Under the pieces are notes generated by a model. That model searched no databases and was not told the origin of the DNA. It saw nothing but the letters and a program-made list of their open reading frames with translations. Shown one piece after another: positions 34,394 through 47,743 of a DNA stretch of 64,000 bases. The position numbers were made by a program, and so were the translations under genes. Source of the DNA: Dehalococcoidia bacterium (lineage in GTDB: Bacteria > Chloroflexota > Dehalococcoidia > Bin125); contig CAXXRD010000001.1 of the NCBI GenBank assembly GCA_963663895.2, positions 608,001 to 672,000 on the forward strand, given 5' to 3'. The stretch's first letter is position 1. Every line of letters starts with the position of its first letter.

Positions 34394-34864
34394 TCAGAGT
34401 GGGGCCGGCGCCCCTTCGGCCAGCGCCTTCCCCAGGCGATCGAGCTCCTGGCGCAGCCGCCGCTGCATCAAGCGGCGGAGCAGTGGAGCTCCCAGCAGAA
34501 AACTCACGCTGGTCGCGCGACTGTCGGAGCCGGCCTTCATCCGGTTCTCAATGCGGCTGCCGCTCTTGGCCGGTTCGATCGTGACCGTTCTCTGGAAAGG
34601 AAAGGGGCCGCCGATCGACCGGATCGTGAAGCAACGCGGCGCGTCGAAGGCAGTCACTTCGTAGCGGATATCGTGGGTACGGCCGCCGTAGGTGTACTTG
34701 CTCACGAAAGTCGACCCGGCGCCGAATTCGCCCTCGGAGACCCGGCGCGGCTCCGACACGCCAATCACCCAACATGGCATGTTCTCGACCGCGGAACTGA
34801 AAGCGAACACTTGATCCGGCGCCTGCCGCACGACGCTGGATGCCGCTGCTTCAAGCCATCGCAC
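34394..34864 (-). CDS. SRPBCC/polyketide cyclase-like protein
   Basis: PDQVFAF...ENMPCW, EVTAFDAP, C-terminal helix LRQELDRL. Confidence 0.7.
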   Translation of the reverse strand: MRWLEAAASSVVRQAPDQVFAFSSAVENMPCWVIGVSEPRRVSEGEFGAGSTFVSKYTYGGRTHDIRYEVTAFDAPRCFTIRSIGGPFPFQRTVTIEPAKSGSRIENRMKAGSDSRATSVSFLLGAPLLRRLMQRRLRQELDRLGKALAEGAPAPL

Positions 34865-34917
34865 GCCGCCTACCCTTCCGTACGCGGCACGCTACCATCC
34901 CTGCACGGCAGGGAGCG

Positions 34918-35886
34918 ATGCACGACGCGGACAAACCCGGCTTCCTCTTCTCGGTCGCGCCGGGGCAGCGGCGCACCATGATCGCGCTCGCCCAGGAACT
35001 CGACCGGCGGGGCTTCCCCTTCCTCTACTGTCCGCATGGGGCGGGGGGCGCGATCGAGCCCGGGCAACAGCGCATCGCCCGGCCTTACCGCATTCCAGCT
35101 CCTTACGACGCGCTGGGGCAGGCGTTCGCGCTGATCCAGGCAACGAAGCGCATGACCATCGGCAGCGGCGTCGCCGTCACCTACACGCGCCATCCCACCG
35201 AGATGGCGGCAACGGCCAACCTGATCCACGAACTCGGCAACGGCCGGTTCATTCTGGGCCTCGGCGTGGGGCACGGCCCGATCCTGCAGCAGTTCGGCTA
35301 CGTGCCCGAAGCGCCGATCGCGCATCTGCGCCGCTATGTGGAGGCGCTCCGCGCGGCTGCGAGCGATCGGCCGCTGCCAGCCATCGTCTTTGCGGCGCTG
35401 CGCAAACGCATGACCGCGCTCGCGGGCGAACTCGCGGACGGCGTGCTCTTCGCCAATGCCGCCCGCTCGCACATCCCCGTCTCACTGCGCGAGATCCCCG
35501 CCGCCGGGCGAGCGGCCTTTCTCATCGGGAACTTCGCCCCCTGCTACGTCGCGGAGGATCGAAGCGAGGCGCTGACGGCGGTCCGGCGGGCGCTGACCAA
35601 CTACATGACGCTTCCGAACTACCAGCGCTACTTCATCGAAGCCGGCTATGCGGACGCAGTCGCGCAGGGTCGCGCCGCCATTGAGGCCGACGACCAGCCC
35701 CAACTCGAAGCCTCGATCTCAGAGCGCATGGCGGAGGACATCTGCGTCTTCGGCACCCCCGCCGAAATCAGAGCCCAGGTCGCCGCCTTCCGAGAGGCCG
35801 GCGTGAACCAAGTCGGCCTCTCCACGCTCTTCCACACGCAAGACCAGGCCAAGGCGATCGCGCGCGTCGCCGCCGCCTTCGACTAG
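34918..35886 (+). CDS. LLM class flavin-dependent oxidoreductase (tandem copy 1)
   Basis: GSGVAVTYTRHP, GRFILGLGVGH, LAGELADG, GTPAEI. Confidence 0.85.
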   Translation: MHDADKPGFLFSVAPGQRRTMIALAQELDRRGFPFLYCPHGAGGAIEPGQQRIARPYRIPAPYDALGQAFALIQATKRMTIGSGVAVTYTRHPTEMAATANLIHELGNGRFILGLGVGHGPILQQFGYVPEAPIAHLRRYVEALRAAASDRPLPAIVFAALRKRMTALAGELADGVLFANAARSHIPVSLREIPAAGRAAFLIGNFAPCYVAEDRSEALTAVRRALTNYMTLPNYQRYFIEAGYADAVAQGRAAIEADDQPQLEASISERMAEDICVFGTPAEIRAQVAAFREAGVNQVGLSTLFHTQDQAKAIARVAAAFD

Positions 35887-35966
35887 CAGACGGTTGTCCC
35901 GCCAGGCAGGCGATCGCTAGCCTCGCTCGTGACCGCCCCCATTCGTGAATCGAACTGGAGACCCCG

Positions 35967-36941
35967 ATGGAGTCCAAGCCAGGCTTTCTGTTCTACGCCG
36001 TGCCGGGTCAACGCAAGTCGATGATCGCGGCGGCCGAGGAGCTCGACCGGCGCGGCTTTCCCTTCATCTACTGCAACCACGGATCCGCACGCGTTTTGCC
36101 GGCCGGCCAGGAGGCGCAGCAGTCAGGCGTGGTCCGGACCTACATCGGCACGGCGGTGACGGACGGCCTGAGCCACTGCCTGGCGATCGCGATGCGGACG
36201 AAGCGCATCACCGTCGGCACGGGGATCGAGGTGACGTACACCCGGCACCCGGTCGAAATGCTCGGCGTGGCGAACTACATCAACGAGGTCAGTGGCGGCC
36301 GCTTCCTCCTCGGAATCGGACCCGGCCACAACGAGATCCTCCGGCAATGGAACTACCCCATCGAGAAGCCCTTGGCGCACATGCGCCGCTACACGCAGGA
36401 GCTGCGCGCGGTGGCGACGGGCCAGCCGATCCCGCCGCTGATCTTCTCGGTGCTGCGCAACGGCATGCTGCGCTTAGCCGGCGAACTCGCCGACGGCGCG
36501 ATCTGGGCCAACGCCGTCCTCTCCTACCTGCCAACGGCGCTCAAGGAAGTCCCGGCCGAGAAGCGGGATTCCTTCATCGTGGCAAATCTGGCTCCCTGCT
36601 ACGTCTCGGAAGATCGCGCGGAAGCGTTGGAAGCCGTGCGCGTGGCGCTGACCAACTACCTGACGCTAACGAACTATCAGCGCTACTTCACGGAAGCGGG
36701 CTACGGGAAAGAAGTGGAGCAGGCGAAGGCGGCGATAGCCGCGAACGATCACGCCGGAGTCGCGGCGGCCGTGTCGGAGCGCATGGCGGACGATATCTGC
36801 CTCTACGGCAGCGCAGCGGACGTGCGGGAGAGATTCGAGGCCTTCCAGGCGGCCGGGGTGAACCAGATGTGCGTCTCGACGCTGTTCCACAGCGACGATC
36901 AAGCCGAGGCCATCCTGCGAGTCGCGGACGCGTTCGATTAG
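35967..36941 (+). CDS. LLM class flavin-dependent oxidoreductase (tandem copy 2)
   Basis: GTGIEVTYTRHP, GRFLLGIGPGH, LAGELADG. Confidence 0.85.
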   Translation: MESKPGFLFYAVPGQRKSMIAAAEELDRRGFPFIYCNHGSARVLPAGQEAQQSGVVRTYIGTAVTDGLSHCLAIAMRTKRITVGTGIEVTYTRHPVEMLGVANYINEVSGGRFLLGIGPGHNEILRQWNYPIEKPLAHMRRYTQELRAVATGQPIPPLIFSVLRNGMLRLAGELADGAIWANAVLSYLPTALKEVPAEKRDSFIVANLAPCYVSEDRAEALEAVRVALTNYLTLTNYQRYFTEAGYGKEVEQAKAAIAANDHAGVAAAVSERMADDICLYGSAADVRERFEAFQAAGVNQMCVSTLFHSDDQAEAILRVADAFD

Positions 36942-36945
36942 CCCC

Positions 36946-37869
36946 GTGCAGAAGCCGGGCTTCGTCCTCAGCGCACCGCCGGGACAGCGCAAGGCGATCA
37001 TCGAAGCCGCCCGGGAACTGGAACGGCGCGGATTCCCGCACGTGCTGTGCCCGCACGAATACGCGCGGCCGCACGACGCGCAAGCGCCGTACGACTGCCT
37101 GAGTCTCTGCACCGCGCTGGCCCAGGCGACGCAGGCGATCCGGATCGTGAGCGGCGTCGCGGTGACCTACACCCGTCCCCCTGCCGACATGGCCGCGGCC
37201 GCCTCCTTCAATTACGAAATCAGCGACGGGCGCTTCATGCTGGGCCTGGGTTCGGGCTACAAGATCGTGCTCGATCGCTTCGGCATCAAGACGGAGCCAC
37301 CCATCCCGCACATGCGGCGCTACCTAGAAGAGCTGCGATCCGCGGCAACCGAGCAACCGCTGCCCCCCATTCTCATCGCCGCGCTGCGGCGGAGAATGGC
37401 CGCACTGGCGGGAGAGCTCGCGGACGGACTGATCGGCGGCAACTGGGCGCTTTCCCATGTCCCGGCAACCCTCGCCAGCATCCCGGCCGACCAGCGTGAC
37501 CGGCTCATCGTTGCCAACGTCACCCCCGTGTATCTCTGCGATGATCGAGCAGAAGGACTGGCGTTCATGCGCCGGCTCTGCGCAGCCTTCAGCCGCATCC
37601 CCACCTACGCCGCCTACTTCAGCGAAGCCGGCTACCAGGAAGAGGTCGAGCGGGCGCAGGCGGCCTTCGCAGCGGGCACGAGCCAAGCGGCGGACGCCAT
37701 TTCGGAACGCATGGCGGACGATATCGGCATCTTCGGTTCCCCCCACGACATCCGGGAGCGCGTCGAGGCGTGGCAAGCGGCCGGCGTGAACTGGCTTACG
37801 CTTTCGACGCTGTACCCAATCCGCGACCGCGCCGCAGCGGCGCTCCGCGTGGCTGCAGTCTTCGACTAA
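36946..37869 (+). CDS. LLM class flavin-dependent oxidoreductase (tandem copy 3)
   Basis: SGVAVTYTRPP, GRFMLGLGSG, LAGELADG. Confidence 0.85.
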   Translation: MQKPGFVLSAPPGQRKAIIEAARELERRGFPHVLCPHEYARPHDAQAPYDCLSLCTALAQATQAIRIVSGVAVTYTRPPADMAAAASFNYEISDGRFMLGLGSGYKIVLDRFGIKTEPPIPHMRRYLEELRSAATEQPLPPILIAALRRRMAALAGELADGLIGGNWALSHVPATLASIPADQRDRLIVANVTPVYLCDDRAEGLAFMRRLCAAFSRIPTYAAYFSEAGYQEEVERAQAAFAAGTSQAADAISERMADDIGIFGSPHDIRERVEAWQAAGVNWLTLSTLYPIRDRAAAALRVAAVFD

Positions 37870-37947
37870 ATCGACCGCCCCTCGACCGCATTGCCCCCTC
37901 TGGCGCCCAATAGTTGTTTATGTCTCTTGATCATGGGCAGGTTTTCC

Positions 37948-38095
37948 TTGACAGCCCTCTTGGCCCACTGAAAAAATTCGCGGATAGGGTGTACCGCTTG
38001 CCCGATGATCTGTCGGGCTGCGGTAGCATTGGCAAGCCTTGGCCGGTCACCCGCCGGGCGGGGTTTCTATCCGTTGTCCCCAAGCATGCTGGGGC
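37948..38095 (+). promoter_or_regulatory. Putative promoter (-35 TTGACA) and structured 5' leader of the SBP gene
   Basis: TTGACA at 37948 with a weak AAAAAT -10. CGGATAG (37981-87) pairs with CTATCCG (38067-73), enclosing the TACCGC..GCCCGA/TCGGGC..GCGGTA hairpin. Confidence 0.35.
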
Positions 38096-38133
38096 GAAGA
38101 CTGCGCAGTTGGATTAGCTGAAGGAGGAGCGGA

Positions 38134-40008
38134 TTGAGCGAAAGCTTCATCGACAAAACGAACAGGAAGGTGATGCGACGCCGGGTAAGCCGGCGCAGCA
38201 TCCTCGCCGCGTCGGGAGCGGCTGGCCTCGGGGCCGCAGGGTTAGCTCTCGTAGGCTGCGGCGACGATGACGACGATGCGCCGGCGGTCGCTCAGGCCCC
38301 GGCCGCTCAGGCCCCGGCTGCTCAGGCCCCGGCTGCTCAGGCCCCGGCCGCTCAGGCCCCGGCCGCTCAGGCCCCGGCAGAGCAAGCTCCCATGGAAGAG
38401 CAGATGCCCATGGAGGAATCCATGGAGTTCGGGCCCGCGACGCATGAGGCGGTGCCGCCGCGGTCCAGCAAGGACATCGCGGTTCTGGCAGTGAGCGCGA
38501 CCCCGATCGCGGTCGACCCCGACTACGGTCACGGCAGCCCGCAGACCTGGGAATCGTGGATGAACGTCTTCGACCAAACGATCAAGTTTGGTTGGCGGGA
38601 CTACCCATTCGACGTCGGCGAAGTCAATCACGTCGGCTATGTCTCGTTCGAGAACGACGACCTGCTGCCCTGGATGCAGGAATCGTGGGAACTCAGCGAG
38701 GATCAGACGAGCCTCGTGATCAACATCCGGCCAGGCGTCCAAAGCTCGACCGGCAACGAGTTGACCGCTGAGGACTTCGCCTACCGGATCGACCGGGCCT
38801 TCGGGTTGGGCGCCATCGGCGCTTTCTTCACCCAGCTCATCAACATCGACCCGGAGAACCCGTACGAGATCCTGGGCCGGCACCAGATCAAGGTGAATTC
38901 GACGAACCCAAACGGCCTCCTGCTCCCCATCTGGGCGAACAGCGCCTGGCAGGTCATCGACCAGGTGGAGGCGCGCGCCGCCGCCACCGCCGACGACGAG
39001 TGGTCCGTGGAATGGATGGCGCAGAATGGGGTCGGCTTCGGGAGCATCGCGGTCGACACCTTCGGAACCGGTGAGCGCGTCGTCTTCACTGCGAACCAGA
39101 ACTACTTCCGCGGTGAGCAGCCGATCACGAACATCGTCTACGAAGAGGTTCCGCAGGCCTCCAACCGCCTGGCGGCGGTGGCGGCCGGCGAGGCCGACGC
39201 GGCCTACGGGCTTCCCGGAGAGCTGTGGATCCAGGCCCGCGACGAGGCGATCCAGAACCCGATCGCCATCAAGGGCAACCTGATCATCTTCGGGTTCATG
39301 AACGCGCTGCGGGAGCCGTGGCAGGACCCGCGGACGCGGCAAGCGATGAACTGGGCGACCCCTCGCCAGGAGATCCTGGACATCGCCTACGGAGGCTTGG
39401 GCGTACCGTGGACCACGGTCATGACCTCGATCTTCCCGGGCGTCAACGAGAGTGTCGTACCCTGGGGCGCGGATCCCAACGTTGGCGAGGCCCGCGCGCT
39501 ACTCGACGCGGCCGGTCAAAGCGACGGCTTCGATGTCACGCTCGACTACGACACCTCCGTGGCGCAGTACGAGCGCATCGGCGTGCTGCTGCAAGACGCG
39601 TACTCCAACATCGGCGTGAACGTCACGTTGAACCCGCAGCCGAATGGGCCCTACGCGGCCGAGGCCACTGGCAAGCAGAAGACTTTCGGACTCTGGCAGG
39701 ACGCCTACATCCAGCCGGACCCGATCTACTTCCTGAACCTTGGCTACGACGCCGGGCTGGGCGGCATCAACAACTACGGACAGGTCGACGACCCGGAGTT
39801 GAACGACATGCTGGAGCGGGGCAGTCTCTTCACGGACCTCCAGGACCGTGTGGATATCGCAACGCCGATCCAGGAGCGGGTCGTGGATCTCGCGCCGTAC
39901 ATCTGGTTGGTGGAGCCGTTCTACACCAACGTGCTCAACGAGAACCTGCGCGGGTTCCGCTGGCACACCACCCAAGAGACCTACTGGTCGGATATGTACT
40001 TCGTCTAG
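38134..40008 (+). CDS. ABC solute-binding protein, family 5 (DppA/OppA-like), Tat-exported lipoprotein
   Basis: SRRSIL twin-Arg, LVG-C lipobox, GNELTAEDF, DPRTRQAMNWA, EARALLDAAG. TTG follows AAGGAGGAG. Confidence 0.88.
   Translation: MSESFIDKTNRKVMRRRVSRRSILAASGAAGLGAAGLALVGCGDDDDDAPAVAQAPAAQAPAAQAPAAQAPAAQAPAAQAPAEQAPMEEQMPMEESMEFGPATHEAVPPRSSKDIAVLAVSATPIAVDPDYGHGSPQTWESWMNVFDQTIKFGWRDYPFDVGEVNHVGYVSFENDDLLPWMQESWELSEDQTSLVINIRPGVQSSTGNELTAEDFAYRIDRAFGLGAIGAFFTQLINIDPENPYEILGRHQIKVNSTNPNGLLLPIWANSAWQVIDQVEARAAATADDEWSVEWMAQNGVGFGSIAVDTFGTGERVVFTANQNYFRGEQPITNIVYEEVPQASNRLAAVAAGEADAAYGLPGELWIQARDEAIQNPIAIKGNLIIFGFMNALREPWQDPRTRQAMNWATPRQEILDIAYGGLGVPWTTVMTSIFPGVNESVVPWGADPNVGEARALLDAAGQSDGFDVTLDYDTSVAQYERIGVLLQDAYSNIGVNVTLNPQPNGPYAAEATGKQKTFGLWQDAYIQPDPIYFLNLGYDAGLGGINNYGQVDDPELNDMLERGSLFTDLQDRVDIATPIQERVVDLAPYIWLVEPFYTNVLNENLRGFRWHTTQETYWSDMYFV
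38290..38379 (+). repeat. Six tandem 15-bp repeats GCTCAGGCCCCGGC(C/T/A) encoding the (AQAPA)6 linker
   Basis: Directly visible, and in frame within the SBP. Confidence 0.9.
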
Positions 40009-40033
40009 TCGGTCCTCGCAGGGAAGCGAGAAC

Positions 40034-40064
40034 AGGGGCCGCCCTCCGGGCGGCCCCTCTCTTT
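40034..40064 (+). terminator. Rho-independent terminator of SBP 1
   Basis: AGGGGCCGCCC-TCC-GGGCGGCCCCT followed by CTCTTT. Confidence 0.75.
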
Positions 40065-40322
40065 GCGCTCACATCGCCACCCCCGTATGGCCCCGGGTTC
40101 ACTCTTCGGACGAAGCCGGCCCAATTCTCTCCCCTCACCCTCCCCCCAAGCGTCGAGCCTTTTCTGCACTCTTTCTCAGCGTCTCCCAGCATCGGAAGGC
40201 CAATCGCCGAAACCGTGTCCTCGCCTCGCCTGCGCTGGATAAGGTCCGACCGAGAACGAGCGGCCGGTAAGCCGGGGCTCACCCCCGTCCGTCCAGCGGG
40301 ATCACGGACGGATCGCGGGGCA

Positions 40323-40356
40323 CAAAGAAGGGGCCCGGCATCTCTGCCGGGCCCCT
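40323..40356 (-). terminator. Rho-independent terminator of SBP 2
   Basis: 12-bp stem AGGGGCCCGGCA/TGCCGGGCCCCT, followed by TCTTTG on the minus strand. Confidence 0.75.
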
Positions 40357-40390
40357 CAACCGTCGCGCTACGGAATCGTCTTCATGCCTC

Positions 40391-42274
40391 CTAGGAGGTG
40401 AAGAAGACCTCCCCGTAATCGATCTGGTTGTCCGTGCGGTGGTAGTAACCACTCAGGTTGTCGCGCCAGATCCAGGACGGGTCGGTCCAACACATCCAGG
40501 CCATCGGCGCGTCCTCGGCAACGATGCGCTGCGCCTCCGCGAAGTGGCCGAAGGCCTCCTCGGAGAGATCGTCGCCCACGTTGACGCCGGCCTCCAGCGC
40601 CTGCCAGAACTCCGCCGACTGGGCGCGGCCCTTGTGCCATCCGGCCCAGTTGAGGATGGAGTCCGGGGTGAAGAAGAGACCGAGGTAGTACGGAATCGTC
40701 TGCACGATCGCGTAGTCCCTGGTCATGAACCCCGGCAGCCCCTCGTCACCGATGGAGCGGTTCTCGTTGGACTCGGAGGGCGTCAGGCCCTTGAGCTGCA
40801 CGTCGATGCCCGCCGCCGCGGCGGACTCCTTCATGAGGATGACCGCCTCCTCCTGGTCGGGGAAGGCGAGCTCGAAGCCCATCTCGAAGCTGAAACCATC
40901 CGCAAGGCCGGCCTCGGCCAGCAGCGCGCGGGCCCCGTCGATGTCCGTCTTGACGTATGGCTCGAACAGGTCGGGGCGCGACCCGGGGATCGGGTCCCAA
41001 ACCATCCCGAACTGCCGGCGAGCGCGGCCTTGGTAGACCGTGTTGATGACCTCGTCGTAGGGGATCGTCTGCAGGAAGGCCTGCCGGACGCGAACGTCGT
41101 CGAACGGCTGCACGCCGAAGTTCATCGTCGCCCACAGGCTGAGGTCCGTGAAGGCGTCCGGCACGAAGATGCCCTCACTGGCCGCCGCGTCGACCTGCTC
41201 GCGAGCGAGCATCTGACGCGCGATGTGCACGTCGCCGCGCTTCACCAGCGAGAGACGCGTCGAGGTTTCCGGCACTACGCGCCAGATCATGCGCTCCGGC
41301 CGGTTGGGGTTACCGCCCACCCAGTGCTCGTTGCGCAGCCACAGGGCCTGCTGGCCCTGGGTGAAGCTGTCCACGTAGTAGGGGCCGTGGCCATGGGCGT
41401 TATTAACGGCCCACTCAGCGGCCCACGGGTCGGCCTCCGTCGAGTTCTCCATCAGCCGCCTGGAGTCGACGATGGAGCCGCCGTGGTTGTTGGCGATCGC
41501 GTGCTCGAACGTCGTGAACGGCTGCGGCAGTTGGAACTGGACCGTGTAGTCATCGATCCGCCGAACCTGACTATCGATGTCGAAATCATCCCGATTCCGG
41601 TAGAGACCGAGGGCGAAGTCCTGGACGAAGGCTCCGATCAGATTCAGATGGAACTTGCGATCCTGCGTGTAGACCACATCGTCCGCCGTGAGCTCGTTGC
41701 CCCAGGGACTCATGACCCCTTCCCGCAGCTTGAAGGTATAGGTCATGCGGTCGTCGCTGCGTTCCCAATCCTCAGCGAGCATCATCTGGAAGTCGTCGCG
41801 CTGGCCGCCCACCGACTGCTGCAGGTAATCGCCGTCAAAGACCGTGGGCTTGATGGCGTAGCGCATCAGCTGGGCATGCTCGTTGACCGAGGCTTCCTGG
41901 CTCTCGTTCACCGAGGCCAGTTCCTGGTCCAAGGTGGTCCAGAGGGTCGCCTGCGCGACGATCAGGTCCCGCTCGACATCTGCTGGCTCCGGGGCAGGAG
42001 CCGGCGCCTCGTCCGGCATCTGCTCCGCCGGCATCTGTTCGTCCGGCATCTGCTCCGCCGGGGCTTGAGCAGCTGGCGCCTGAGCGGCCGGGGCCTGCGC
42101 GGCCGGGGCTTGCGCGGCGGCTGGCGCATCATCGTCGTCGTCGCCACAGCCCACGATTCCGATGGCGACCGCGCCGAGCCCGGCGCCTCCCATGCTGGCC
42201 ATAACTTTGCGACGAGAGACGCGGCGGTCGGCCCACCACCTCTTCGTCGTCTTCGGACTCTTCTTGATGTACAT
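40391..42274 (-). CDS. ABC solute-binding protein, family 5, Tat-exported lipoprotein
   Basis: SRRKVM, IVG-C lipobox, YTFKLREG, GNELTADDV, GHGPY, DVRVRQA, ARALLAEAG. ATG 42274 follows AGGAGG. Confidence 0.88.
   Translation of the reverse strand: MYIKKSPKTTKRWWADRRVSRRKVMASMGGAGLGAVAIGIVGCGDDDDDAPAAAQAPAAQAPAAQAPAAQAPAEQMPDEQMPAEQMPDEAPAPAPEPADVERDLIVAQATLWTTLDQELASVNESQEASVNEHAQLMRYAIKPTVFDGDYLQQSVGGQRDDFQMMLAEDWERSDDRMTYTFKLREGVMSPWGNELTADDVVYTQDRKFHLNLIGAFVQDFALGLYRNRDDFDIDSQVRRIDDYTVQFQLPQPFTTFEHAIANNHGGSIVDSRRLMENSTEADPWAAEWAVNNAHGHGPYYVDSFTQGQQALWLRNEHWVGGNPNRPERMIWRVVPETSTRLSLVKRGDVHIARQMLAREQVDAAASEGIFVPDAFTDLSLWATMNFGVQPFDDVRVRQAFLQTIPYDEVINTVYQGRARRQFGMVWDPIPGSRPDLFEPYVKTDIDGARALLAEAGLADGFSFEMGFELAFPDQEEAVILMKESAAAAGIDVQLKGLTPSESNENRSIGDEGLPGFMTRDYAIVQTIPYYLGLFFTPDSILNWAGWHKGRAQSAEFWQALEAGVNVGDDLSEEAFGHFAEAQRIVAEDAPMAWMCWTDPSWIWRDNLSGYYHRTDNQIDYGEVFFTS
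42010..42125 (-). repeat. Degenerate 15-bp repeats encoding a (QAPAA)x4 + (EQMPD/A)x3 linker
   Basis: Visible in the translation, and as repeated CCGGCATCTG units on the + strand. Confidence 0.75.
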
Positions 42275-42564
42275 GCTCTTTCGCTTCCTCCTACTTGCTA
42301 GACGACCTGCGTCGCGTCGCTCCACCGGGAACGAAGTCCCGGCCCTAGCTTGTGTGGAGCGTACATTACTCGATACAGCCTTAGATCAAGTGACTCGCAC
42401 CGCACCTCCTTGGCATCTTTCAGAATTATGTCCCTAAGGCGCGCTGCCGCGCCCTGGAAAGGTCGCAGTGTCGCCGATCGAGGCGCGTCAGTCCAGCCCG
42501 CGCACCGCGCGCGGATTTAGTGACACAATGGGCCCAAAGCTGCCTAGCGTGAGAGGAAGGTGCC

Positions 42565-43125
42565 ATGCCCCTGACCCGTGTCCCGCACGAAGCGTTGGCC
42601 GAGGACTATCGCGCCATGGTCGAGGAATGCATCGATCAGGCCGGCGACGCCCGTTTCCTGGAGATCGGCGCCAATGCGCCGCACATGATGCAATTCTACT
42701 TCGGCGAGTTCTACGAGAAGATCTTCTTCGCGGGCGTCGCTCCCGTCCCGATCAAGGAGCTCGCGCGGCTTCGCCTTTCCACCCTGCACGGCTGTGCGTT
42801 GTGAAACAAGGTCAATACCGTCTCGGCGAGACGGCACGGTATCACCGACGCGCAGATCGCGAGCTTGGACGACTTTGAGAACGGGCCCTTCGATGAGCGG
42901 GAGAAGGCTGCCCTGCGACTGGCGACGGTCATGGCATGGACCGCGCCGCGCGGCTACGTGGACGATATCCTGGAAGCGCAGTTGCGCGAGTATTTCTCGG
43001 ACGCCCAGATCGTCGAGCTGGGAATGGTCTGCGCCCAACTGGTCGGGATGGCGAAGCTTCTGTTCGTTTTCGACTGGGCGGATAAGGAAGATTACTGCCC
43101 ACTGGCGCCGCTCCCAGAAGCATAG
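42565..43125 (+). CDS. AhpD/carboxymuconolactone-decarboxylase family protein with in-frame TGA (probable selenocysteine, CxxU), 186 aa
   Basis: IKELARLRLSTLHGCAL-TGA(42802-04)-NKVNTVSARRHGITDAQIASLDDFENGPFDEREKAALRLA...FSDAQIVELG continues in one frame. A hairpin follows the TGA. Confidence 0.8.
42805..42836 (+). promoter_or_regulatory. Candidate bacterial SECIS element
   Basis: CCGTCTC-GGC-GAGACGG hairpin (42818-42834). The loop begins with G, 20 nt after the UGA. Confidence 0.6.
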
Positions 43126-43222
43126 GCCCCGCGCTGTCGGCATCCACCGCATCAGCGGCGATTCGCTGGCAGGCGGCTGCCTTCCGGCCGACATGATCCG
43201 TCCGTCTATATACTGAGTCCCC

Positions 43223-45010
43223 ATGCCACACGCACCTGCCGACGACACTGCGGGCATCGATCCCGTCACGTTCGAAGTGGTCCGCAACGCCTTCGTCTCG
43301 ATCTGCAACGAGATGGCGCTGGTGGTCGCCAAGACCGCCTACTCCACCCCCGTCAACGAGGGCCGCGACTTCGCCAGCGGCATCTACGATCACGAGGGCA
43401 AGCTGATCTCCCAAGGCGAGTTCGACTTGCCCGCTTTCGTGGGGCTCACGCATCTCACGGTGCCGGAAGTGATCCGAGCGATCGGGCGGGAAAACATGCG
43501 GCTCGACGACATCTACATGATCAACGACCCCTACGTGGCCAGTACGCATTGCAACGACATTCACTTCGTGAAGCCGGTGTTCATCGACGGGAAGCTGGTG
43601 GCGTTCGTCTCGGCCACCGCGCACTGGTCGGACGTGGGAGGCATCGCTCCCGGATCGCTGATCTGCGCGGCGCGGACGCACTTCGAGGAAGGCGTGCGCA
43701 TTCCGGCGGTCACGATTTATGAGCAGGGGGTCCTAAACGAGGACATCCTCTCCCTGCTCCTCTCCAATATGCGCCAGTCCTGGGAGCGTCTGGGCGACTT
43801 CAACGCGCAAGTGGCGGCCGTGCGGGCGGGCGAGGCGCGCTTCCACGCGCTGGTGGACCGGCACGGGTTGGACGTCGTGCGCGGGACGATGGCGGAGGTG
43901 CAGGACTATTCCGAACGGATGGTCCGGGCCGCCTTCGCCAGCCTTCCGGACGGCAGCTATTACGGAGAGGACCGCTGCGATCAGGACATTTTCACCGGAG
44001 AGCCCAAAGCGATGCGGCTCACGCTCACGATCCGCGGCGACCAGGCGGTCTTCGACCTGACCGAGAGCGACGGCCCAGCGGAGTGCAGCATCAACTGCAC
44101 GATCGCGGCGACCACGTCGGCGCTCTTCATCGCCTTGGCGTCCATCCTGCCGCCCATGCCGATCAACAGCGGCGTGATGCGCGCGATCGAGATCAAGGCC
44201 ACGCGCGGATCGCTCGCCTGGGCAGAGCCCCCGTCGGGAATCTCGGGGCTGCCCGCCACCACCATGGACACGGTGACGAGCTGCGTGACGCAGGCGCTCA
44301 GCCAAGCGTTGCCCGAGCGCGGCGTCGGCGCCGCCTACAGCATCCTGAATTGCGTCTTCTCCGGTTTCGACGAACGGCCCGAGTTCCTGTCGCCTTTCAT
44401 CAACTACGTATGGGGCTTTGGCGGCATGGGAGCGACTGCGAGCAAGGATGGGACCGCGGCAGCGGCCGCCCCCTACGGCGGCAGTATTCAGACCATCCCC
44501 TGCGAGCTGCAGGAGCGCCGCTATCCCGTCCTCTGGCGCCGCCATCAGCTCCTCCCCAGCTCGGGTGGACCCGGCGCCACCCGCGGCGGCTTGGCGCTCG
44601 ACGAGCTGGTGGAGTTTCCCTTCCAGTCCGGCGTCGTCTCGTGCATCGGGGCGCGCGAGCGCTTTGGCGCACCCGGCCTCTTTGGCGCGGGCGACGGCGC
44701 GACGGCGGGTTTGATCATCAACCGGGGGACCGAGTCGGAACGCAACCTGGGGGTGATGGCGCTTCACCAACCCGTCAGCGCCAACGAGGTCATGTCGTTG
44801 TGGTCGGGCGGGGGAGGCGGCTACGGCGACCCGCTGGACCGGCCGCTGGAACGGGTCCTGGACGACGTCAAGGACGAGTACATCTCGATCGAGGGCGCAC
44901 GCGCCCAGTACGGCGCGGTCATCCGTGAGGTCGACCGCCGCACACTCGCCTTCGAGATCGATGTGGCAGCGAGCGAGCGGCTGCGGTCCGAGCGACGCGC
45001 CGCCCGTTAG
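43223..45010 (+). CDS. Hydantoinase B/oxoprolinase-family subunit (paralog 3)
   Basis: DPVTFEV, NDPYVASTHCND, AHWSDVGG, GGGGYGDP. Confidence 0.9.
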   Translation: MPHAPADDTAGIDPVTFEVVRNAFVSICNEMALVVAKTAYSTPVNEGRDFASGIYDHEGKLISQGEFDLPAFVGLTHLTVPEVIRAIGRENMRLDDIYMINDPYVASTHCNDIHFVKPVFIDGKLVAFVSATAHWSDVGGIAPGSLICAARTHFEEGVRIPAVTIYEQGVLNEDILSLLLSNMRQSWERLGDFNAQVAAVRAGEARFHALVDRHGLDVVRGTMAEVQDYSERMVRAAFASLPDGSYYGEDRCDQDIFTGEPKAMRLTLTIRGDQAVFDLTESDGPAECSINCTIAATTSALFIALASILPPMPINSGVMRAIEIKATRGSLAWAEPPSGISGLPATTMDTVTSCVTQALSQALPERGVGAAYSILNCVFSGFDERPEFLSPFINYVWGFGGMGATASKDGTAAAAAPYGGSIQTIPCELQERRYPVLWRRHQLLPSSGGPGATRGGLALDELVEFPFQSGVVSCIGARERFGAPGLFGAGDGATAGLIINRGTESERNLGVMALHQPVSANEVMSLWSGGGGGYGDPLDRPLERVLDDVKDEYISIEGARAQYGAVIREVDRRTLAFEIDVAASERLRSERRAAR

Positions 45011-45023
45011 CGGGGCTGCGGCC

Positions 45024-45929
45024 CTAGCGCGCCTGGACCCACTCGCCGATACGCTCGATCGCTTGCTGTCCCTCCGGCAGCATCCCCGCGAACTGCTGCC
45101 ACACATGCACCATCTCCGGCCACTCCTCCAGCGTCACATTGACGCCGGCCGCTCGAGCACGCTCAGCGACGCGGGTCGTGTCCGCGAGGATGATCTCATG
45201 ATCGCCGACCTGCATCAGCAGCGGCGGCAGTCCCGCCAGCTCCGCATACACCGGTGAAGCGAGGGGGGTTTGGGCGGGAGCGCCGCCAAGGTACAGCCCG
45301 GCCATTCGCTTGAGGCCGGCCTCCCCGATCATCGGATCGACATCTTTCCGCGTTTGGAGGGTCTCCCCGCTGACCGCCATGTCGCTCCAGGCGGAGAGGG
45401 TGACCGCGGCGTCGGGAAGAGGAATCCCAGTGTCGCGGGCTTGCACGAGCGCGGCGAGGGTGAGACCCCCTCCGGCCGAATCGCCCGCCACCAACGTCTT
45501 GCCGGCAGGTTTGGGGCCGTCAGGCCCGTTGTCGTGCATCCAGCGGAGAGCAGCGACCGCATCGTCGACGGCAGCCGGGTAGGGATGCTCGGGCGCGAGG
45601 CGATAGTCCAGGAAGAGCGCTGCGTAGCCGGTCGCGGCAGCGATCCGCGCAACGAGATCGCGGTGCGTGTCCAGCGATCCAATGACGTAGCCCCCCCCGT
45701 GCAGGTAGAGCAGCCGCTTGTCGGGATCGGAGTTCGGCGCCTGGACCCATTCCGCCGGAATTCCCTCTGCCTTGGTCGCAGCGGTCCGCGTTCCTTCGGG
45801 CGGGGGCATCCCGTTACTGTTCAGGAGCAAGCGCAAGGCATCGTACGTCTTCGCCTCCATGTGCTCGTCGATGATGCTGGCGAGCTTACCCGCCATCCCA
45901 CGGACCTTCTCAAGCTGTTCGGATGCCAC
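45024..45929 (-). CDS. Alpha/beta hydrolase, HSL family esterase/lactonase
   Basis: HGGGY, DYRLAPEHPYPA, GDSAGG, MVHVW. Confidence 0.92.
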   Translation of the reverse strand: MASEQLEKVRGMAGKLASIIDEHMEAKTYDALRLLLNSNGMPPPEGTRTAATKAEGIPAEWVQAPNSDPDKRLLYLHGGGYVIGSLDTHRDLVARIAAATGYAALFLDYRLAPEHPYPAAVDDAVAALRWMHDNGPDGPKPAGKTLVAGDSAGGGLTLAALVQARDTGIPLPDAAVTLSAWSDMAVSGETLQTRKDVDPMIGEAGLKRMAGLYLGGAPAQTPLASPVYAELAGLPPLLMQVGDHEIILADTTRVAERARAAGVNVTLEEWPEMVHVWQQFAGMLPEGQQAIERIGEWVQAR

Positions 45930-46135
45930 CGGTGCTCCTCCTCATTAGCTATCACTGCTCTTAGTGCCACTTGAACCAGCGCTTGCCGAAAAATCGCTAC
46001 GCAGCGTTCTGTCGCAGGTTCTACCACGGCAGCGGCCCTCGCGCGAAGGCTCGAAGCCAACAGCCCCTGTATCATCCTGCAGCAGAAGGACGCGCCGGGT
46101 GGGTCGGCGCGCACGGTACGGTGACAGGAGACGGG

Positions 46136-47743
46136 ATGGGAACGACGGCGCGGCGCAGCATTTGGGCCTGGGGGTTGGAATCCGAAGAGCCGAGCGAGGC
46201 CGACCGGAAGGCGGAAGCCAAACGGATGGCGGAGGAGTATGGCACCGTGGTCGACCCGCCCCCGCTGCCCACCATCGATCGCGTGGACATTGGGGCGCCC
46301 CGGATCCAGGCGCCGGACGCCCTCGCCACGATCTGCGCCAACGACAAGCACGACCGCGCCGCCCATGCCTACGGACGCTCCTATCCCGACAAGCTGCGCG
46401 CTTTCCAGGGCGACTTTCGCAACGCCCCGGACCTCGTCGCCTACCCGAGCAGCGAGGAGGAGGTCAGCGCCGTTCTCGAATGGTGCTCCGACAACGGGTA
46501 CGCGGCGATCCCCTACGGCGGAGGATCGTCCGTGGTCGACGGCGTGAATCCGCCCGAGGGCTACGACGGCATCGTGACGATCGATCTGACGAGGTTGGAC
46601 CAGGTACTGGAGATCGATGAATCGTCGCGCGCGGCGCGCATCCAGGCGGGCGTTTTGGGCCCGGCCCTGGAGGCGCAGTTGAAGCCGCACGGGTACACGC
46701 TGCGCCATTTCCCGCAGTCGTTCGAGTTCTCCTCCCTGGGTGGCTGGATCGTGACCCGTTCCGGAGGGCATTACGCCACCAACCACACGCACATCGACGA
46801 GTTCGTGGAGTCGGTACGGATGGTCACACCGCGGGGCATCTGGGAATCCAGGCGGCTCCCCGGGAGCGGAGCCGGCCCGAGTCCGGACCGCCTCGTCATC
46901 GGCAGCGAGGGCATTCTCGGGATCGTGACGGAAGCGTGGATGCGGATTCAGAAGCGGCCCCGCTTTCGGGCATCCGCCGGCGTCCGCTTCCCCGACTGGG
47001 CTTCGGGCTTCGAAGGAACCCGCCAGGTCGTCCAAGCGAAGCTCTGGCCAGCCAATCTGCGGCTCTTGGACCCAGCCGAAGCGCAGAAGGGCTCCGGGTT
47101 GGATGGGAAGCAGTCGCTGCTGATCATCGGTTTCGAATCAGCGGAGGTGCCGCAGGGCGCCTTCATCCAGGAAGCCGTCCAGATCGCCCGCGCGGCCGGC
47201 GGGCAGATCGACGACGAAGCGATCGTCGTCGACGACGGCACGGGGAACCCCACGGGGCGCGGCGGGAACGTCGGCGCCTGGCGGGATTGGTTCATCCGCG
47301 CCCCCTATGCCAAGAACACCCAGGTTGGGCTGGGGCTGATCGCCGACACCTTCGAAACCGCGATCACGTGGGACCGCTTCCCCGAGTTCGATGCGGCGGT
47401 GCGGACCGCCATGACGGACATCTTGCAGCGGGTCTGCGGCGGGGGAGAGATCGCGTGCCGCTTCACCCACGTCTACCCGGACGGACCCGCGCCGTATTAC
47501 ACCTACGCCGGGTTTGGCACGCCGGGGGCGGAGTTGGAGCAGTGGAACATGATCAAGGCGGCCGGCTCGGACGCCGTCATGAACGCCGGCGGGACCATTA
47601 CGCACCATCACGCCGTTGGCCGGATGCACCGTCCTTGGTACGACGGTCAGCGACCGGATCTCTTCGCGGGAGCGCTGCGCGAAGCCAAGCGCTCCCTGGA
47701 TCCCAACGGCGTCCTAAATCCAGGCGTTCTGATCGACCCGTAG
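46136..47743 (+). CDS. FAD-binding oxidoreductase (alkyl-DHAP-synthase-like, VAO family)
   Basis: PYGGGSSV, LRHFPQSFEFSSLGGW, GSEGILG, THHHAVG, DPNGVLNPG. Confidence 0.88.
   Translation: MGTTARRSIWAWGLESEEPSEADRKAEAKRMAEEYGTVVDPPPLPTIDRVDIGAPRIQAPDALATICANDKHDRAAHAYGRSYPDKLRAFQGDFRNAPDLVAYPSSEEEVSAVLEWCSDNGYAAIPYGGGSSVVDGVNPPEGYDGIVTIDLTRLDQVLEIDESSRAARIQAGVLGPALEAQLKPHGYTLRHFPQSFEFSSLGGWIVTRSGGHYATNHTHIDEFVESVRMVTPRGIWESRRLPGSGAGPSPDRLVIGSEGILGIVTEAWMRIQKRPRFRASAGVRFPDWASGFEGTRQVVQAKLWPANLRLLDPAEAQKGSGLDGKQSLLIIGFESAEVPQGAFIQEAVQIARAAGGQIDDEAIVVDDGTGNPTGRGGNVGAWRDWFIRAPYAKNTQVGLGLIADTFETAITWDRFPEFDAAVRTAMTDILQRVCGGGEIACRFTHVYPDGPAPYYTYAGFGTPGAELEQWNMIKAAGSDAVMNAGGTITHHHAVGRMHRPWYDGQRPDLFAGALREAKRSLDPNGVLNPGVLIDP

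Follow-up and report, generated by a model that had tools for sequence, protein, structure and literature searches.

AhpD proper acts together with AhpC and the lipoamide system, and the genes encoding these components are often adjacent. In the AhpD of Mycobacterium tuberculosis, it is the second cysteine of the CxxC motif that attacks AhpC as a nucleophile, and a Glu/His proton relay includes a histidine located four residues past this cysteine. In Escherichia coli fdhF, the SECIS element that directs the insertion of selenocysteine (Sec) is a hairpin within the coding sequence, directly 3' of the UGA, that is read by SelB and has a loop G approximately 20 nt from the UGA. The bSECISearch model uses a spacing window of roughly 16 to 37 nt.

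CxxU selenoproteins of the AhpD/CMD kind have been known since 2005, when 27 AhpD-like (COG2128) and 4 CMD-domain (PF02627) sequences were described from the Sargasso Sea (PMC1088965). In the GOS data of 2008, AhpD-like 1 (COG2128) and AhpD-like 2 (pfam02627) were counted 299 and 70 times, respectively, and ranked with the commonest selenoproteins of the sea (PMC2398784); both sources agree with the initial annotation of the present locus, in which AhpD-like selenoproteins were said to be known from metagenomes. Several AhpD/CMD Sec families are treated in reviews of 2022 (PMC9312934) and 2026 (PMC13188914), and the account of BSepDB places the Dehalococcoidia among the selenoprotein-rich bacteria (PMC13326102). 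As characterized in this literature, the marine AhpD-like/CMD CxxU selenoproteins have the PF02627 domain, Sec in place of the second Cys of CxxC, widespread Cys homologs, and a small G-containing loop after the UGA, and annotation usually misses their genes.

The gene described here shares these properties and is an additional member of this kind. It differs from the marine proteins in its host, which belongs to a Chloroflexota lineage with a duplication of the gene, and in that its product falls below the cut-offs of the named NCBIfam models. In the window (the whole 64,000-nucleotide stretch of DNA that was analyzed), positions 42565 to 43125 very probably constitute one gene for a 186-residue CMD/AhpD selenoprotein, in which UGA is read as Sec by means of a SECIS element and which is likely to be a thiol/selenol oxidoreductase. 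A selenoenzyme of this length had been proposed in the initial annotation, and the proposal is now backed by Cys/TGA alternation among homologs, selection, the hairpin, and the Sec machinery of the genome.

Gene organization and reading frame

The features of the locus are summarized in Table 1. Two open reading frames (ORFs) on the forward strand, of 79 aa (42565 to 42804) and 86 aa (42865 to 43125), lie in a common frame and are separated by the TGA and the 20 sense codons that follow it, exactly as had been noted before. The 86-aa ORF is opened by TTG at 42865, and the whole frame is closed by TAG at 43123 to 43125. When the TGA is translated as Sec (U), the read-through product has 186 residues, including ...KELARLRLSTLHGCAL-U-NKVNTVSARRHGITDAQI... 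around the codon in question. The two ORFs represent one gene, since neither half could fold alone; the structure predicted by AlphaFold2 is one domain that extends across the TGA, in keeping with the earlier view that both halves are needed for the fold.

Table 1. Positions of the features of the selenoprotein locus and its neighbors in the window
Feature	Position	Strand	Remarks
Complete selenoprotein gene	42565..43125	+	186 codons from ATG to TAG; CMD/AhpD fold
Shine-Dalgarno-like AGGAAGG	42554..42560	+	4 nt before ATG; read directly from the sequence, putative function
UGA read as selenocysteine, residue 80 (predicted)	42802..42804	+	Column is TGA in relatives and Cys in most homologs
Redox motif H75-G-C77-A-L-U80-N81-K-V-N84	42787..42816	+	H75, G76, C77, C80, N81, and N84 at least 90% conserved
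SECIS upper hairpin (predicted)	42818..42834	+	7-bp stem, GGC loop; in register across Sec forms, covarying
ABC solute-binding protein family 5	40391..42325	-	Upstream, divergent; Pfam SBP_bac_5, E 7e-59
Hydantoinase B/oxoprolinase	43223..45010	+	Downstream, 97-nt gap; Pfam Hydantoinase_B, E 1.8e-144

TGA is a normal stop codon in this genome. Among 677 frames of at least 500 codons, 288 terminate with TAG, 278 with TGA, and 111 with TAA, and no internal TGA was found in the genes neighboring the locus; TGA is therefore not recoded globally. In the region from 34840 to 47743 of the window, the nine Pfam-supported genes that were checked end with TAG (seven), TAA (one), and TGA (one).

An exhaustive protein search gave 990 matches at E <= 0.001, 128 at 1e-10, and 16 at 1e-30, and the public protein sets proved to contain the halves and truncated ORFs that pipelines had been expected to produce from such a gene. 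P0107, P0141, P0156, and P0062, which include the 79-aa and 69-aa representatives, end right after HGCxx, and P0116 ends after HLCxx. Many of the matches are C-terminal halves; of these, P0065 is the 86-aa half of the window gene itself, and P0040 and P0058 come from other lineages. The gene matters mainly for annotation, being mis-called as halves in public protein sets; the scientific surprise is low, and no open question is answered by it.

Alternation of cysteine and TGA in homologs

A word-indexed search yielded 62 homologs, most of which are 185 to 195 aa long and 42 to 50% identical to the 186-residue protein at a query coverage of 91 to 99%. The full-length Cys homologs (185 to 192 aa) share the MP... 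N-terminus with it. The alignment used below (A1) contains 44 sequences, i.e., the query and 43 of the 62 homologs, after near-duplicates and a few fragments were dropped. The initial annotation had placed the TGA at the second Cys position of the GCxxC motif, and in A1 this position is Cys in at least 90% of the sequences. Among the best 80 loci of the genome_contigs set, 79 carry the motif, with Cys in 77 and TGA in 2 of them at this column; the remaining locus, L110, failed the motif pattern and was left out of the count.

A search of 61 related genomes gave nine matches at E <= 1e-50, each with exactly one in-frame TGA. These matches, five orthologs and four paralogs, are located in five genomes (G000, G001, G002, G011, and G039), and all nine of these Chloroflexota sequences read HGCxxU with the U in the identical column. 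The actinobacterial locus L094 also has TGA at the Sec column, which brings the TGA forms to 10 in all, with identities of 47 to 95% over the compared segments. The Sec site was masked for a quick maximum-likelihood tree of 87 sequences, in which the nine Chloroflexota Sec forms constitute one clade (SH-aLRT 99) with both paralog groups inside, and so Sec has been kept through a duplication and while the copies diverged to 52% identity (whole protein). The long branch of L094 is unplaced, and the tree would be compatible with one common origin of Sec that includes L094.

Both flanks of the column are under selection. Among the three same-genus orthologs, dN/dS was 0.09, 0.04, and 0.09 over the 95 codons past the TGA and 0.16, 0.09, and 0.17 over the 60 codons ahead of it, and there were no frameshifts or extra stops downstream; the part after the TGA is at least as constrained as the part before it. 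Together with the homolog alignments, these values bear out the prediction that Cys and TGA would alternate at a single position, flanked by conserved sequence on either side.

A change from TGT or TGC to TGA requires only a single base, and gene callers report only halves (P0065 from the window, P0040 and P0058 from other lineages), so that a nonsense change of the second Cys codon might have left a pseudogene expressing nothing but the 79-residue fragment. This explanation is very improbable and is already contradicted by the data: the TGA is kept at 10 loci and in both copies of an old duplication, the codons beyond it evolve under the low dN/dS given above with an intact frame, the hairpin described below covaries and is specific to the TGA forms, and the genome contains the full Sec machinery.

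An error of sequencing or assembly, with TGC or TGT as the true codon, is more improbable still, to the point of being practically negligible. The genome is apparently metagenome-assembled, as is its closest named relative, a Chloroflexota MAG (locus L037, at the same position as G001), and the window itself may stem from run X1. However, contigs of runs X1, X3, and X4, which belong to three studies, bridge 42802 to 42804 with no other letter, and eight further assemblies of relatives have TGA in that column. The independently assembled contigs thus speak against the assembly error that had been considered in the initial annotation.

Hairpin downstream of the UGA

The perfect 7-bp hairpin with a G-initiated loop that had been described 20 nt after the UGA is present as stated. 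It is composed of CCGTCTC (42818 to 42824), GGC (42825 to 42827), and GAGACGG (42828 to 42834), and the apical loop begins 20 nt past the TGA. Compared with the fdhF SECIS element of E. coli, the stem sequence is different, the loop (GGC) is shorter, and a bulged U is not evident; reading by SelB is putative here. In the description of bacterial SECIS elements in PMC1088965, a stem-loop just 3' of the UGA has a small apical loop containing G, and the hairpin of the window gene likewise has a small G-containing loop close to the 3' side of the UGA, at a distance that lies inside the spacing window of the bSECISearch model.

The pairing was scored in register, i.e., nucleotides 17 to 23 with nucleotides 33 to 27, counted from the U of the UGA. 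All seven pairs are formed in 9 of the 10 Sec forms, and six are formed in L094, which has a C/A mismatch or a bulged A; the GGC loop is found in all 10. In contrast, none of the 77 Cys forms has seven pairs, even when the register is shifted by up to 3 nt either way. Their most frequent pair count is 3 (0 pairs in 1 sequence, 1 in 2, 2 in 20, 3 in 26, 4 in 17, 5 in 9, and 6 in 2). In the alignment of the 10 Sec forms, 69 of the 70 cells are paired, and three of the seven pairs have changed on both sides (U-A/C-G/G-C, C-G/U-A, and U-A/G-C). The covariation score was equaled by 0 of 500 shuffles, and sliding the partner by 1 to 3 columns reduced the paired cells to 36 to 54%. Because the 10 Sec forms are kin and perhaps represent four or five lineages, these counts overstate the number of independent events. 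The compensatory changes coincide with amino acid changes (TVSARR versus SASAKR), which means that the RNA structure is kept at a cost in protein sequence. The hairpin is accordingly conserved, covarying, and specific to the TGA forms, and it provides a clean example of a coding-region SECIS with a covarying stem.

The folding energy does not distinguish the region. For the 75-nt stretch, z was -0.15, and 77 of 200 shuffles folded at least as well; the mean energy of the hairpin region (-10.7 kcal/mol) is no better than those of the Cys homologs in the comparison (-10.5 to -14.7 kcal/mol), which are GC-rich. We replaced folding energy by in-register pair counts because energy does not separate Sec from Cys forms, and the hairpin is non-random by its position and by comparison, not by its energy. 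Since three nucleotides make a tight loop when closed by C-G, the real apical loop may be the 5-nt CGGCG. An Rfam scan of 42500 to 43200 detected no SECIS family, its only match being a chance snoRNA-like one with an E of 0.64. Several sequences would allow a lower stem between the region right after the UGA and that at about +37 to +45; the registers differ, however, and we make no claim for this element.

Each of the runs X1, X3, and X4 contains a further contig that matches only 42802 to 42834, with one or two differences, and has flanks unlike those of the window. When translated by eye, these flanks read ...THGCFL before the TGA. The near identity of the 33 bases suggests either a constraint on the element at the nucleotide level or an exchange between homologs. 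In these communities, the window gene shares the SECIS stretch, almost letter for letter, with a homolog that is more distant.

Selenocysteine machinery and other selenoproteins

The genome encodes the Sec machinery that the initial annotation had implied. SelA (404 bits), SelB (327 bits; 349 bits with the C-terminal part), and SelD (359 bits) are all above the curated cut-offs, and tRNA-Sec was detected both by ARAGORN (tRNA-SeC, anticodon tca) and by Rfam RF01852 at 71 bits, above the cut-off. The selD gene (locus L010, G000 contig C2:564495-565427, + strand) has an in-frame TGA of its own within the LCGGU motif, and, by eye, a hairpin loop at a similar distance, approximately 21 to 24 nt past its UGA.

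A paralogous CMD/AhpD selenoprotein gene (locus L014, G000 contig C3:81905-82453, - strand) encodes a protein 52% identical to that of the window gene, with the motif HGCHFU, its own TGA, and the covarying hairpin CCGCTTC-GGC-GAAGCGG. Paralogs are likewise present in G001, G002, and G011. The selenoproteome of the organism gains two members, the window gene and the paralog on contig C3, and, as selD carries its own TGA, comprises at least three selenoprotein genes.

Fold and active site of the subfamily

Residues 45 to 100 of the read-through product, a segment that spans the TGA, match Pfam CMD (PF02627) at 34 bits (cut-off, 23). With the curated NCBIfam models, in contrast, the 186-residue protein stays below every cut-off. 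The top match, NF053654 ('YciW-related (seleno)protein'), has 47.2 bits where 310 are required, which is only a hint toward the YciW-related (AhpD-like 1, COG2128) group, and TIGR01926, NF041047, NF041238, and NF041537, which are given as AhpD-type selenoprotein models in PMC13188914, gave no match at E <= 0.1.

The structure predicted by AlphaFold2 from the alignment is an all-helical single domain of 10 helices (pLDDT 89.4, pTM 0.83), with block means of 88 to 98 over residues 51 to 120, which include residue 80. In a Foldseek search, 6k40, 2prr, 3c1l, 6ohj, and 2ijc were found at a probability of 1.00 and TM values of 0.62 to 0.73 (0.67 to 0.73 for the first four). The A1 profile matched PA0269 (PDB accession numbers 2ijc, 2o4d, and 7xw1) with E values of 5.5e-19 to 1.3e-18, Atu0492 (2gmy) with 3.6e-14, and the debrominase Bmp8 (6ohi/6ohj) with 4e-7 over residues 61 to 163.

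PA0269 from Pseudomonas aeruginosa (7xw1 is titled 'AhpD from P. aeruginosa') and Atu0492 are thus the closest solved relatives by sequence, sharing the CMD core over residues 62 to 163 and a GCxxC in the same helix turn. Whereas the window protein has 186 residues, these proteins have 145 to 153 aa and lack both the N-terminal extension of approximately 60 residues and the E-x-x-C-P tail. They have Cys instead of Sec, in the context NGCxxCxxxH (Asn, -2; His, +4), while in the subfamily motif HGCxxC/U-NxxN position -2 is His and positions +1 and +4 are Asn. Residues that are at least 90% conserved in A1 include K64, R68, S72, H75, G76, C77, C80 (the U position), N81, N84, E175, and C178. The +4 position, occupied by His in the AhpD type, is Asn84 here and is Asn in at least 90% of the subfamily. 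The previous remark that the His after CxxC is replaced is right as far as it was tested, namely against the GCxxCxxxH of PA0269 and Atu0492. The rearrangement of His and Asn is found in Cys members as well and is therefore a trait of the subfamily rather than of its Sec members.

The likeness to M. tuberculosis AhpD extends to the fold class and the CxxC redox centre, and the role of the second cysteine as the nucleophile of that enzyme fits the presence of Sec at this position. Since the histidine at +4 is Asn in the subfamily, catalytic details cannot simply be copied from AhpD. E175-x-x-C178 of the E-x-x-C-P tail is nearly invariant (at least 90% in A1) and lies on the low-confidence C-terminal tail of the model; one might speculate that C178 serves as a third redox residue. 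The codon of C178 is at 43096 to 43098. In all, the protein is only mildly novel, by virtue of the rearranged active-site residues, the conserved tail cysteine, and Sec in two paralogs.

Putative mechanism and possible reactions

The hairpin in the mRNA, with its 7 bp and GGC loop, would act as a bacterial SECIS element that recruits SelB and Sec-tRNA(Sec) to the ribosome, with SelA making Sec from the selenophosphate that SelD would supply. The product, in which Sec takes the place of the second Cys of CxxC (C77-x-x-U80), is most likely a thiol/selenol oxidoreductase. In such an enzyme, the target of attack by U80 would be an oxidized substrate or partner (e.g., a peroxide, a peroxiredoxin, or some other disulfide or sulfenate), and the resulting adduct would be resolved by C77 as a selenenylsulfide.

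A different chemistry based on the CxxC of the CMD fold, e.g., reductive dehalogenation as in Bmp8, was also considered. Such a reaction would parallel the chemistry of the deiodinases, which are Sec dependent. The profile match to Bmp8 is significant, and few full-length fold matches are as good as that to Bmp8 (TMq 0.73). The surroundings of the active site are unlike those of the PA0269-type AhpD, gene context does not support a peroxiredoxin partner, and the stretch of the window occurs in sponge-metagenome runs. On the other hand, the similarity to the PA0269 type (E of about 1e-19) is far stronger than that to Bmp8, and the histidine that Bmp8 has at +3 after CxxC (GCxxCKSH) is missing from the subfamily. 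In addition, the genes flanking the window gene include neither a halogenase gene nor a related one, and the Cys homologs come mostly from freshwater and soil Proteobacteria and Actinobacteria, not from sponge symbionts. We regard a Sec enzyme of this other chemistry as unlikely, and we would give equally small weight to the broader proposal that the HGCxxU-NxxN...ExxCP subfamily is a distinct Sec enzyme, not an AhpD-type peroxidase partner, that could dehalogenate brominated metabolites. If that proposal were true, the subfamily would combine a moved active-site His with a flexible-tail Cys as a possible third redox residue, and two Sec paralogs of such an enzyme would have been kept in a Chloroflexota lineage found in sponge-metagenome runs. 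A thiol/selenol oxidoreductase remains the preferred reading of the window gene.

Genomic neighborhood and distribution

The neighbors of the window gene are an SBP_bac_5 protein and hydantoinase B (Table 1), and, unlike what is often the case for AhpD proper, neither AhpC nor lipoamide-system genes are adjacent at the window locus. The link to hydantoinase B is not conserved, since another ORF, which appears luciferase-like by eye, lies downstream of the ortholog in G011. From 138 ORFs prepared for 69 loci, 60 flanking ORFs of 30 homolog loci were scanned; no neighbor family occurs at more than two of these 30 loci, and a Redoxin/AhpC-TSA gene adjoins two of them. Gene context was rejected as a clue to function.

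No match at E <= 1e-25 was obtained in 300 other Chloroflexota genomes from across the phylum. The subfamily is therefore patchy in the Chloroflexota, and horizontal transfer is plausible. Most of the Cys homologs belong to freshwater or soil Proteobacteria and Actinobacteria, and sponge-metagenome runs are among those in which the window stretch is present. RNA run X18 matches only 42500 to 42547, upstream of the gene.

Farther upstream in the window, two genes for luciferase-like monooxygenases are located at 34840 to 35886 and 36946 to 37869, and a gene for another family 5 solute-binding protein (38134 to 40008, + strand) precedes the divergent one at 40391 to 42325 (- strand). The latter protein has a repetitive N-terminal linker rich in Ala, Pro, and Gln (AQAPAAQAPAAQ...).
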